Assembly: GCA_951406725.2 (NCBI GenBank)
Contig: OX597837.1
Location: forward strand, 40,610,001 to 40,674,000
Source: Octopus vulgaris
Taxonomy: Eukaryota
Direction: 5' to 3'
DNA: 64,000 nucleotides
In this document: positions 7,555-45,350 of the stretch, one piece after another
How the letters are laid out: each line of letters begins with the position of its first letter
Numbering within the stretch: the stretch's first letter is position 1
Notes under the pieces: generated by a model
What the model saw: the letters and a program-made list of their open reading frames with translations, nothing else
Told to the model about the DNA's origin: nothing
Database searches by the model: none
Position numbers and translations under genes: made by a program

Positions 7555-7720
7555 CGAGAAGGTTTACGAAAATAAACAAAAGACGAAGGCAGGTGGAGTA
7601 CAAACAAACAAAGAATTAGTATGGCGCTCAGGAATAGAAATAAAACAACTCTTTTACGTTTCAAGCCTACGCTCTTCGACAGAACGATACACAGAAAAGA
7701 AACAAGGAGAGAGAAAAACT
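7555..7720 (-). mobile_element. Copy of the variant-hammerhead repeat family
   Basis: Aligns by eye with 45197-45350 (gtttacgaaaa...aagacgaag.caggtgg.gtacaaa...cttttacgtttc.agcctacgctcttc.acagaa). Core reads CUGUCGA-A-GAGC-GUAG-GCUU-GAAAC-GUA. Confidence 0.65.
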
Positions 7721-8284
7721 GCGTGTAGGGGCTAACGATCCAACATGACTTTCTGATTTCAGGAGAAGTCAGAGATCGGAGGTCAAACGTTAGAGGTCAG
7801 ACATTAGACGCTAGAGGGATAGTAGGGGAGATAACAGGGTCAAGTGACCTCGCCCCAACATGAAGGTGCATGTGTGCATAAGGGAGTATGTATGTGCATG
7901 TGAAAGAGGGCTGGTGGTCTGGACGTGTGTATGTATGTATAATGTGATGTGTAATGTCGTATCGTGTAGTGTAGTGTGGTGTAATGTTGTGGGGAGGTGG
8001 GGGGCGAGAGTGGTGAAAGCCCATGTGGGGTGTGGGTTCGGCTAGGGGTTAGGGTAGAGTGGGGGTTGTGACTTCATACTTCTCGTGAGATTTAAACGTG
8101 AACTGGTGGAGGAGTAAATGTAAGGATAACACAGTTAGGCAAGTCGATATTTAATATTTTTTGTATATCGACTCGAATATCCTTGCATTTATTCCTTTAT
8201 CTGGTCAAGTTGAATCTCTTGACCACTACCAAATGTATTCTATGCGGGGGAATATCTCTTTCGTCTATAAACTATATACAGATA

Positions 8285-8697
8285 GGCGCAGGAGTGGCTG
8301 TGTGGTAAGTAGCTTGCTAACCAGCCACATGGTTCCGGGTTCAGTCCCACTGCGTGGCATCTTGGGCAAGTGTCTTCTGCTATAGCCCCGGGCCGACCAA
8401 TGCCTTGTGAGAGGATTTGGTAGACGGAAACTGAAAGAAGCCCATCGTATATATGTATATATATATGTGTGTATGTGTGTGTGTGTGTGTGTGTGTGTGT
8501 GTGTGTGTGTGTTTGTCCCCCTAGTATTGCTTGACAACCGATGCTGGTGTGTTTACGTCCCCGTCACTTAGCGGTTCGGTAAAAGAGATCGATAGAATAA
8601 GTACTGGGCTTACAAAGAATAAGTCCTGGGGTCGATTTGCTCGACTAAAGGCGGTGCTCCAGCATGGCCGCAGCCAAATGACTGAAACAAGTGAAAA
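8285..8697 (+). mobile_element. tRNA-derived SINE family A, full length, with internal (TA)n(TG)n
   Basis: ggcgcaggagtggctgtgtggtaag...gggttcagtcccactgcgtggcatcttgggcaagtgtc...(ta)(tg)...gcttgacaaccgatgctgg...cagcatggccgcag.caaatgactgaaacaag. Many copies occur in the window. Confidence 0.85.
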
Positions 8698-9440
8698 AAA
8701 TATTTATATATGTTTATGTATTTGTGTATGAGTGTATATATAACAAGTTATCTGTGCGTGTGTAGAATCTAATGCTTACCTTATCATACAGTCGCTGAAA
8801 TATCTCGATGCTTTACTGGTTAGAAGAAAATTGGTTTATAAATCGGATTTTAATGTCATCCGAAGTATTGAAGATATGATGATGAAAGCAAACTCAAACC
8901 GCATATTTGATAGAAATCGAGAGATTGTGACGTCATAATAGAAATACAGCAGAACCTCTCGAAGAAATTATCCAAAAAGAACTGTGAATTATTATATCAT
9001 TTCCTCCCTTTAATATTCTTAGTTGAAAAATCAGAATTGAAATGACGTCATAATAGATAGAATATTTTACGAATTCTACAAAATGTCTTCTTTTAAGAAA
9101 TTATTGGAATTCATGAAAATCCTTTGTTACTTTTTTACATTTGGTCTGCCAGATTCTTGATGTGGATTCGTGGCTTGAAACAAATTTTGCTGTTTATTGA
9201 GAGATACATTACACCAATATTAATAACACACTCACCGGTTCACTATCAAGAGGCTAATAATAAAGAAGCGGTATTGTGTCAGTGCGGGTGTTATTATTGG
9301 CGAAATGACCCTCCCAAGACACAACAAAACTTTGTTAATTTACGAAACAAAAACCTAAAAATTTAGCTTTGATTGAAGTACAAAGCCAACAGTTTTGAGG
9401 GGAAGGGGCTTAGTGATGGGTAATTTATTATATCGACACC

Positions 9441-9519
9441 CAAGAGATGAAGGAAAAAGCCGACCCCAAGAGATGAAGGAAAAAGCCGACCTCAAGAGAT
9501 GAAGGAAAAAGTTGACCTC
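9441..9519. repeat. 26-bp tandem triplication inside a SINE B remnant
   Basis: caagagatgaaggaaaaagccgacc at 9441, 9467 and 9493. Confidence 0.85.
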
Positions 9520-43316: not shown

Positions 43317-43395
43317 CATTTACACCTGTTTCTGTTTATCAAATCGTAGTAAATTTACATTTACTTCGTTACATTTAATAAACATCTTAAGAATG
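43317..43395 (-). ncRNA. Hammerhead ribozyme remnant with G5->U core mutation
   Basis: The minus strand reads CAUU-CUUAAGA-[UGUUUAUUAAAU...AUUUGAUAAACA, 12 bp plus an inner hairpin]-GAAAC-AGGU-GUA-AAUG. Stems I and II pair fully; the core reads CUUAAGA instead of CUGAAGA. Confidence 0.6.
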
Positions 43396-44119
43396 ATAAG
43401 AGGGAAAAGAAAGGCAAAGAAAGAAAGTAGGATCAATTAAATAAGTACCAGCTACCCACTGTGGCAGATACAATCGAGTAACCCACCTCCCCCTAAGTTA
43501 CTGGCCTTGTGCCAAGATTTGAAATCAAAATTTATCATGTTCTGGTTTTCGTTTCCGATAAGTATTTCGACATTCAATAAGAAGTTATCGCGGATATAAA
43601 TAAATATTTAATCACGTCTTTAATTAATAACTAATTACAATTTTGTACTTTTGATCTGCATTAAGCCTTGTATTCCAGGCCATTCCTTTGATCTTCTCTC
43701 TCAACGGATCATTTCAAACAAGACTTAAAAGTCGTCTTCTGTCATCTCGGATGCCGTGATTTCTTTGCCTGATTGGCACCTAAATAACACTATTAAGACA
43801 GATTTAGATGTTAAGAAGGATAGATTCACACATCGTGTTTTGCATACCGCACTTGAATTAGGGGTAAATATTGAAGAGAAACAAATAAGATAATCAAAGC
43901 TCACGGGCATGGGTGTGTGGTTAGAGGCTAGCCTGCCGACCACATAGTTCCGCTTTCAGTCCCACTGCGTGCCACCTTGGGCCGAGTGTATTCTACAATA
44001 GCCTCAAGTCAGGCCGACCAAAGCTTTGTGAGTGGATTTCGTAGACAGAAACTGAAAGAAACCCGTCGAATATATATATATATATATATATATATATATA
44101 TATATATATATATATATAT

Positions 44120-44628
44120 ATATATAAAACTGTAGTTGTGTGAGTGTCTGTTCCCTTCGATTTAGATTCCTAACTACTCCCACGTTTTGCGGTGCAGTTT
44201 AACCAAATTCGGGTATCTTATAGTCGTGATTCATATCGAGCCCGTCTGAGTATTAGCGCGCGTCTACGATGAGTCTACGATTTTAAAAATAATTTAACAT
44301 CATTTTTTATTCCATTTTAATGCATAATTTTTCGTGTGTCGATGGCGGCGGAGTTGGCGTCCACGCTCAAACACCTGCACCTGTTTTCTTCTCCCCCTTC
44401 TTCCCTCCCTTGTGAAGCTGTGGGGAAGGGAGTGTAAGGAAATCAACGTCGTAAAGCGTTGTCAAGGAGACCAGCGTTCTTTTAGAACAACGACTTCATG
44501 GCTTGAAGACACCAAAACAGAAATGGCTAAGAAAGACCGAATTGGCATCTATAAGGGAAGTAACTCTCTAAAAATGCTTTATAGTTATTTCCCTTACAAA
44601 CCCGAGCAACGCCGGGCGATACTGCTAG
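44120..44628 (+). mobile_element. Non-autonomous Helitron, second copy, nested in the (TA)n of a SINE
   Basis: Shares ~200 bp at the 5' end and ~80 bp at the 3' end with 12289-12684, including cccgagcaacgccgggcgatactgCTAG|t. The 5' boundary is blurred by (TA)n. Confidence 0.8.
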
Positions 44629-45196
44629 TATATATATATATATATATATATATATATATATATGCCGCTGTGTGTGTGTGTGTGTCTTTGTGTTTGCTTT
44701 CTTCGTCACCATCTTTCGACAATCTGTGTTTGTGTATTTACGTCACGGTAACCTAGCGGTTCGGCACAAAAAAACGATGAAATAAAATACCAGCTTTAAG
44801 AGAACTGCTTAGCGAAATTCCTTCTGGCTTTACGCTCTGAGTTTAAACTCCACCAAAGTCATCTTTGCATTTCTTCCTTTTAGGTTCAGCAAAGCATGTA
44901 CCCTGATGAGAACCGGGTACGATGCAACCAGCTTTCCCCACCCGCCCACCCACCCGCCACTAAATTTTTGGACTTATTGTCTTTTGTTTCTCTTTTTTAT
45001 TTGTTTATATGTGTCTACATGCAGTATTATTTACGTGTTTTTTTTTATATCTATATTTTCAGAAATGGCGGACCAGATGAAGATAGAGAATAGAAGTGAG
45101 GCTTAAAGATTACAATTTATGAAGAATATTGGCAACACAAGCGTTAATAACAAGAATTTATAAAAGACAGACGAACAGACGATATATATATATATA

Positions 45197-45350
45197 GGGA
45201 GAGTTTACGAAAAAAACAAAAGACGAAGACAGGTGGTGTACAAAACAAACAGATGTATTAGTATAACGCTCAAGAATAGAAAAAGTCTTTTACGTTTCGA
45301 GCCTACGCTCTTCTACAGAAAGGGACACAGAAAAAAAACAAGGAGAGAAA
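45197..45350 (-). mobile_element. Short (TA)n-anchored repeat with variant hammerhead (putative Penelope-like pLTR)
   Basis: Contains CUUU-CUGUAGA-A-GAGC-GUAG-GCUC-GAAAC-GUA-AAAG (45322-45287). Homologous to copies near 7555, 30595, 36545 and 42985, and ends in (TA)n. Confidence 0.65.

Follow-up and report, generated by a model that had tools for sequence, protein, structure and literature searches.

Minimal hammerhead ribozymes (min-HHRs) are found in the terminal repeats of Penelope-like elements (PLEs), where they have an extra base between positions 9 and 10.1 and a palindromic, loopless stem III at 15.2–16.2, and cleave weakly and only as dimers (Cervera and De la Pena 2014, PMC4209133). 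The sole core variant named in the text of that paper is a U3-A8 combination. Among the elements themselves, Neptune and Nematis have in common a CX2-5CxxC linker (Craig et al. 2021, PMC8557442). Here we describe a hammerhead-like motif in a 64,000-nt stretch of the Octopus vulgaris genome (assembly GCA_951406725.2, contig OX597837.1, positions 40,610,001 to 40,674,000; hereafter the window), which holds six repeat copies. Five are 3' ends, truncated on the 5' side, of a Neptune-type Penelope-like retrotransposon with U in place of A at core position 6 (A6U), and the sixth, at 24432, belongs to a sister family. U6 is fixed in about 20,000 genome copies and is a family state, not decay. An earlier note on this DNA had listed three features as non-canonical. 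Of these, A6U is a genuine departure and probably new. The other two, an extra base and a palindromic stem III with no loop, had been described before, as had cleavage as a dimer (Cervera and De la Pena 2014).

The motifs are embedded in longer repeats of roughly 90-300 nt that terminate in (TA)n. A profile of the repeat tail alone, run on 544 kb of unselected blocks, returned 23 copies (none in reversed DNA); 20 of these contain the motif, and the conservation figures below rest on these 20. Compared with the min-HHR core, C3 U4 G5 A6 N7 G8 A9, the motif differs at position 6 only. G12, A13, A14, A15.1 and U16.1 are each present in 19-20 of 20 copies, H17 is G in a single copy, and the extra base between 9 and 10.1, the G10.1-C11.1 pair and stems I and II are all in place. 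Positions 15.2–16.2 form a palindrome with no loop 3, its C and its G each kept in 16/20 copies and the changes running from C to U and from G to A. Pairing holds in 95.5% of cells over 11 motifs, a partly circular figure since a pairing descriptor had been used to find the six motifs from outside. The motif almost certainly derives from a PLE hammerhead, and its sequence is that of the minimal, dimer type in Penelope terminal repeats, as the earlier note had proposed. Rfam does miss it: no Rfam hammerhead family appears among the 150 best of 353 window matches, nor among all nine matches on a clean young copy.

The genome searched is rich in microsatellites and comprises 2.8 Gb in 227 contigs. 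The exact pattern matches 18,636 times and the reversed pattern not once. When CpG decay is allowed, U6 is found in 22,706 matches and A6 in 351, which disposes of the possibility that the family consensus is canonical and U6 a product of decay. A flank-only pattern gave 18,811 matches (control, 28), and among the 100 listed, a hand count at position 6 found U in 97, C in two, G in one and A in none. The 20 copies picked by their flanks have U6 in 20/20, with N7 divided as A6/U4/G5/C5 and H17 as A11/U6/C2/G1. In the same copies the majority base averages 94.9% over the other 34 motif columns, 82.3% over the flanks and 87.7% over the best 34-column window of the tail, with the proviso that columns are not independent and that the flanks include poorly aligning T-rich stretches. 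The core is thus better conserved than its surroundings, a point on which the hammerhead proposal could have failed. When subfamily majorities were compared, in a sample that included core-picked copies, 49/108 flank columns varied compared with 4/36 motif columns.

A tree of 99 copies was built from flanks only, including 25 A6 copies, mostly added on purpose. On this tree N7 changes 15 times (52.5 when shuffled) and H17 10 times (30.6 when shuffled), so that both track the subfamilies. The fixation of U6 thus came before the split of subfamilies now 8-34% apart in their flanks, and the motif remained under constraint after it, barring N7 and H17, which are the positions free in hammerheads. 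The A6 copies are scattered (23 changes, 23.6 when shuffled), and the idea that they represent an ancestral subfamily within the GUAG-loop family is unsupported overall. In one older branch, 100 listed matches counted by hand had 8 A, 11 C, 1 G and 80 U at position 6; a small A6 sub-lineage is possible there, where four A6 copies group.

Upstream of one genome copy we found a cysteine linker and a GIY-YIG nuclease end. A search with the DNA of this nuclease end gave 1,743 candidates, of which 40 were scored, all 99-100% identical. The U6 motif lies downstream in 30/30 of the best GIY-YIG matches (99-100% identical), and in 12/30 the frame is open over the whole 506 codons examined upstream of the linker. 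These 12 loci were extended to 10 kb, and in 6/12 two motifs spaced 4,444-4,580 nt apart flank an open frame for reverse transcriptase (RT) and GIY-YIG nuclease, the kind of terminal-repeat pair for which the earlier note had proposed to check. The other 6/12 long copies are 5'-truncated, and each PLE terminal repeat has one motif. At two loci (L085 and L087) the motifs lie within direct repeats of 1.07-1.15 kb that are 98.7% and 99.8% identical. The L085 frame runs for ~1,075 codons from its first ATG, with DKG, YIDD, CX4CxxC and GIY-YIG in that order. The translation P0001, in which DKG and YIDD can be read, matches RVT_1 (E 1.5e-7) and, just short of the Pfam cut-off, GIY-YIG (E 3.5e-4); it comes from a single frame with a PLE-type RT followed by a C-terminal GIY-YIG, as in Neptune, and its linker, CSRPRCRTC, fits CX2-5CxxC. 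Partial tandem terminal repeats and insertion at microsatellites are also present, with most copies ending in (TA)n. The element is placed as Neptune-type by its layout and motifs, and an indirect tie to Neptune comes from two loci (L137/L171) that carry the published Acropora Neptune hammerhead.

Several further observations concern this element. On the minus strand of L085, at ~6390-5636, ~760 nt with a long U-rich tract separate the 5' hammerhead from the likely start codon, and the intron that other PLEs are known to have could lie within this stretch. Truncated ends, each with a motif, occur as closely spaced inverted pairs at L012/L013, L029 and L075, an arrangement known for PLEs. Contigs of two other organisms (runs X18 and X20) cover the U6 core with zero mismatches.

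The sister family, to which the 24432 copy belongs, has the same stem II as the U6 family but a loop of mostly 3 nt, A at position 6, and a stem I that is often GUUU/AAAC where the U6 family has CUUU/AAAG. A U4C core accounts for 9,344 matches and the canonical core for 4,922, the latter count including A6 copies with a GUAG loop; only 87 matches have a base other than A at position 6. Tail-picked sister copies have C4 in 6/15 and A6 in 15/15. At one of the sister-family loci (L251, L255-L266 and L268-L274), L272, a canonical motif follows a Neptune-type nuclease end with 57% amino-acid identity. With eight core positions left free, the genome yields 37,185 matches. The first 100 listed divide by hand count into 59 U6, 22 C4, 12 canonical and 7 others, and most intact-stem motifs in the genome therefore carry a non-canonical U-turn. 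With a second core change fixed in the sister family, a fully efficient catalyst is probably not required in this genome.

Across 80 related loci a relaxed descriptor gave 20 matches, 17 with A6, two with U6 (both UUGUCAA) and one weak G6. The layout of these relatives is identical, with A6 and different stem sequences, and because 17/20 have A6, this is likely the ancestral state. One of the UUGUCAA cores (U3, U6, A8), at L196:2791-2826 (+), follows by ~300 nt a Neptune-like frame that shares 44% identity with that of the U6 element. The other, near 3500 in L182 (-), has a stem I of 2 bp only. Both are single records, and decay is possible for each. The L196 contig also has an inverted repeat with ~60-nt arms at 64-197, containing a canonical minimal hammerhead upstream of the frame that is unlike the contig's 3' motif.

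How such a motif would work can be proposed by analogy with the min-HHRs. We give a probability of about one half to the reading that the U6 motif still acts as a slow, still-selected ribozyme, one whose cleavage would require two copies to pair through their ACGU palindromes. As may be gathered from Cervera and De la Pena (2014), two motifs would be present on a read-through transcript, and these would jointly form the missing stem III through the palindromes and cut after GUH. The cut would yield unit-length or circular RNA for the RT and GIY-YIG nuclease of the element. A6U is expected to lower the cleavage rate because natural A6C is slow and single mutants of the CUGA turn are low in activity. 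The slowing may be tolerated or even favoured, since inserted copies would derive from RNA in which the 3' motif, with its ~110-nt tail, is uncut or re-joined. In addition, U6 is predicted to allow a helix between U4-G5-U6 and the palindrome's ACG that would keep the monomer in an off state. For the 36-nt motif, the predicted probability of this helix (G5-C15.2) is 0.77 in 50 U6 copies and 0.09 in 22 A6 copies. Convergence of U4C and A6U on the same helix was considered and rejected, as five natural U4C copies give a P(G5-C15.2) of 0.01.

Residual activity is favoured by the retention of the catalytic guanines and the C3-G8 pair; among the core-free matches listed, a hand count finds G5 and A9 kept in 100/100 and G8 in 98/100. 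The two positions that have changed, 4 and 6, are also those with known natural variants that are slower but active (U4C in a viroid, A6C in a phage). Cleavage by natural A6C is slow, with a preference for Mn2+ (Perreault 2011, PMC3088659; Naghdi 2020, PMC7151607).

A number of results weigh against a slow ribozyme. In one construct, A6C cost more than 10,000-fold in Mg2+ relative to Mn2+ (PMC7151607), a different hammerhead put through a mutational scan gave low activity for single mutants of the CUGA turn (Roberts 2023), and even canonical minimal hammerheads cleave poorly as dimers (PMC4209133). The share of canonical cores, ~12/100 of the listed intact-stem motifs, together with two separate widespread core changes, also fits a loss of catalysis. 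No compensatory stem changes were found within the U6 family, where loop II is fixed, and a promoter or a site bound by a protein would equally be expected to show invariant stems and a fixed loop II. The cut site is the starting point of 0/23 tail-anchored copies and of 1/118 aligned rows. The off-state helix falls to P 0.25 (U6) and 0.00 (A6) when 30-nt flanks are included, and the modelled active dimer, at -10 to -11 kcal/mol, is weaker than other dimers at -21 to -23 in a model without tertiary contacts.

The strongest alternative, a serious one that we consider somewhat improbable, is that the motif no longer cuts and is kept as a structural or sequence signal, its U-turn eroding through A6U in one branch and U4C in the other. 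It might then serve for RNA dimerisation, bind a protein of the element or form part of the terminal-repeat promoter. Matches with the two independent U-turn changes (22,706 and 9,344) outnumber those with the canonical core (4,922), and loop II and the stems are invariant within the family, both as expected of a signal. CUGA changes are strongly harmful in vitro (Roberts 2023), and Naiad elements have spread without canonical hammerheads, the function of PLE hammerheads being called unclear in the same source (PMC8557442). However, G5, G8, G12, A13, A14, the C3-G8 pair and H17 (rarely G) have all been kept while flanks came to differ by up to 34%, and free change is confined to N7 and H17, which is what cleavage chemistry predicts.

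An unlikely alternative is a conditional ribozyme, which, because of U6, would cut only with the help of Mn2+ or a different metal, or of a protein chaperone able to open the off-state helix, so that the motif would be gated and not merely slow. The shift of natural A6C towards Mn2+ (PMC7151607) is consistent with this, as is the predicted rise in G5-C15.2 pairing from 0.09 to 0.77 in natural copies of the 36-nt motif. The UUGUCAA core behind an unrelated Neptune-like frame in L196, and more weakly the one in L182, may point the same way. On the other hand, the U4C sister lacks this helix (P 0.01), the off-state prediction is weaker with longer flanks, and we found no data on A6U and metals in the literature. 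Lastly, neutral hitch-hiking, by which a single master element lost its ribozyme to A6U and then expanded for other reasons, too recently for its motifs to diverge, would agree with fixation of any change through a single founder and with the decay of copies at CpG sites as in neutral DNA, but is very improbable with U6 common to subfamilies 8-34% apart in flank majorities and with motif columns, in the sampled flank-picked copies, better conserved than any equal stretch of the tail.

Returning to the slow ribozyme, a bolder form of that reading can be put forward tentatively, as rather doubtful. Neptune elements here may have been selected for throttled self-cleavage, with a U-turn that changed twice (A6U and U4C), both versions outbreeding the canonical form. 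A6U would then be a working core, perhaps gated by a metal or chaperone, and most PLE hammerheads in this genome, and probably in others, would escape searches with CUGANGA.

Within the window, all six copies are matched by a ~200-nt repeat profile constructed from copies elsewhere in the genome, with E values of 5e-51, 2e-40, 2e-31, 6e-28, 2e-11 and 3e-3, while the top match in the reversed window has E 2.1 only. A hammerhead descriptor with position 6 free found two matches in the window and none in 30 order-2 Markov copies. All six motifs are present where the earlier note had placed them and on the same strands. The four copies it called clean do have U at position 6, and N7 varies among them (C, C, G, A), as it had said. 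Its description of these copies as undecayed, with stem III always palindromic, fails for two: the 36560 copy has ACAU, and the 7651 copy has defects in stems I and II.

The best-preserved copy is a 5'-truncated 3' terminal-repeat fragment with a (TA)n end at 45184..45396 (-; profile E 4.7e-51). Its intact U6 motif, at 45287-45322 (-), has C3 at 45318, U6 at 45315, A at N7 and A at H17 (45291), and the predicted cut falls between 45291 and 45290 on the same strand. A second fragment, at 7543..7840 (-), shares 77% identity with the young element across 313 nt. Its U6 motif at 7651-7686 (-; C3 at 7682, N7 = C, H17 = A) has decayed stems, with a G-U pair at 10.1-11.1 and one stem I pair broken. 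The fragment at 30570..30761 (+; profile E 2e-31) is of an older subfamily, and its U6 motif at 30628-30663 (+; C3 at 30632, N7 = C, H17 = C) has an AUAU palindrome. The AUAU sequence had been pointed out before and is present, but its interpretation as a compensatory change is not supported, as it lies at a decaying CpG whose C has changed in 4/20 copies and whose G has changed in 4/20. A short fragment flanked by (TA)n runs at 36547..36635 (+; profile E 6e-28) has a U6 motif at 36561-36596 (+) with C3 at 36565, N7 = G, U as the inserted base and the palindrome broken to ACAU. The U6-family copy at 43010..43180 (+; E 2.4e-11) is heavily decayed (C3G, G8A, a stem II mismatch and a 2-nt insertion), with U6 kept.

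The remaining copy, at 24339..24521 (-), had been taken for a diverged member of the same family. It instead fits the sister-family model (E 1.8e-18), with a 3-nt loop II and A6, and its core CCGACGA, in the motif at 24432-24461 (-; C3 at 24458), is the common U4C state of that family; its GAAA has decayed to UUAA. No RT or nuclease remnant was found in the window by tblastn; it has truncated 3' ends only, and these lone truncated copies are most likely inert leftovers.

The window also contains other repeats. Two fragments, at 39833-40180 and 58422-58768, are ~97% identical and resemble the C-terminal restriction-like nuclease end of an element without long terminal repeats (non-LTR). Very abundant repeats that look like short interspersed nuclear elements (SINEs), some in ~184-nt tandem units, occur at 5654-6070, 29132-29728, 60566-61116, 2491-2830, 41454-41619 and elsewhere, and resemble the tRNA-derived SINEs of cephalopods. 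Tandem arrays at 22756-23935, 21422-22203 and 46470-48130 have periods of ~151, 269 and 183 nt, respectively.

Three natural cores (canonical, U4C and A6U) on a near-identical scaffold, in thousands of copies each, make the role of the PLE hammerhead directly testable, and the A6U version sits in a young element with open frames. If the A6U core is active, the hammerhead consensus widens; if it is dead, the fold has been retained for some other role in a highly successful PLE. In either case, consensus-based searches would miss most such motifs in this genome.

We found no description of a natural A6U, or CUGUNGA, hammerhead in the literature, a search outside which lay Lunse 2017, figures and bioRxiv supplements, any of which may show U6. 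A6U is not named in the searched passages of PMC3088659 and PMC7151607, and, judged by title, no publication on octopus and hammerhead ribozymes deals with this motif.

Among known systems, the min-HHRs (PMC4209133) are the closest. Like them, the octopus motif has a type I layout, an extra base between A9 and G10.1, a G10.1-C11.1 pair, a palindromic 15.2-16.2 and a short stem I, and occurs as a single motif per terminal repeat, mostly in lone truncated copies. The nearest is that of the Acropora digitifera Neptune, with a 4-bp stem II ending GCUC-GAAA-CGU; this Acropora motif matches those of metagenome loci L137/L171, the frames of which are 49-52% identical to that of the U6 element. The difference lies in the core, as all representatives in the text of Fig. 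S3 of that paper have A6 (required by its descriptor), whereas here U6 is fixed and U4C occurs in the sister branch. The element likewise agrees with the Neptune clade as characterized by Craig et al. (2021, PMC8557442), having an RT followed by a C-terminal GIY-YIG, a CX4CxxC linker, DKG, partial tandem repeats and (TA)n ends, but differs in its non-canonical hammerhead core. Small variants reported by Lunse, Weinberg and Breaker (2017) are similarly PLE-associated, with a diminished stem III and dependence on dimers. Non-LTR retrozymes (PMC7229834) also have a type I hammerhead within an animal repeat, but those consist of short units in tandem, carry canonical hammerheads and lack a frame; here the copies are dispersed ends traced to a coding element, which rules out that identity. 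Finally, as in the natural A6C of phage Bcep176 and the U4C of a viroid, slower yet active where tested (PMC3088659, PMC7151607), the changes here are single substitutions in the CUGA turn. Those variants are rare and monomeric with a proper stem III, whereas in the octopus the changed cores predominate, in a minimal motif with tens of thousands of copies.

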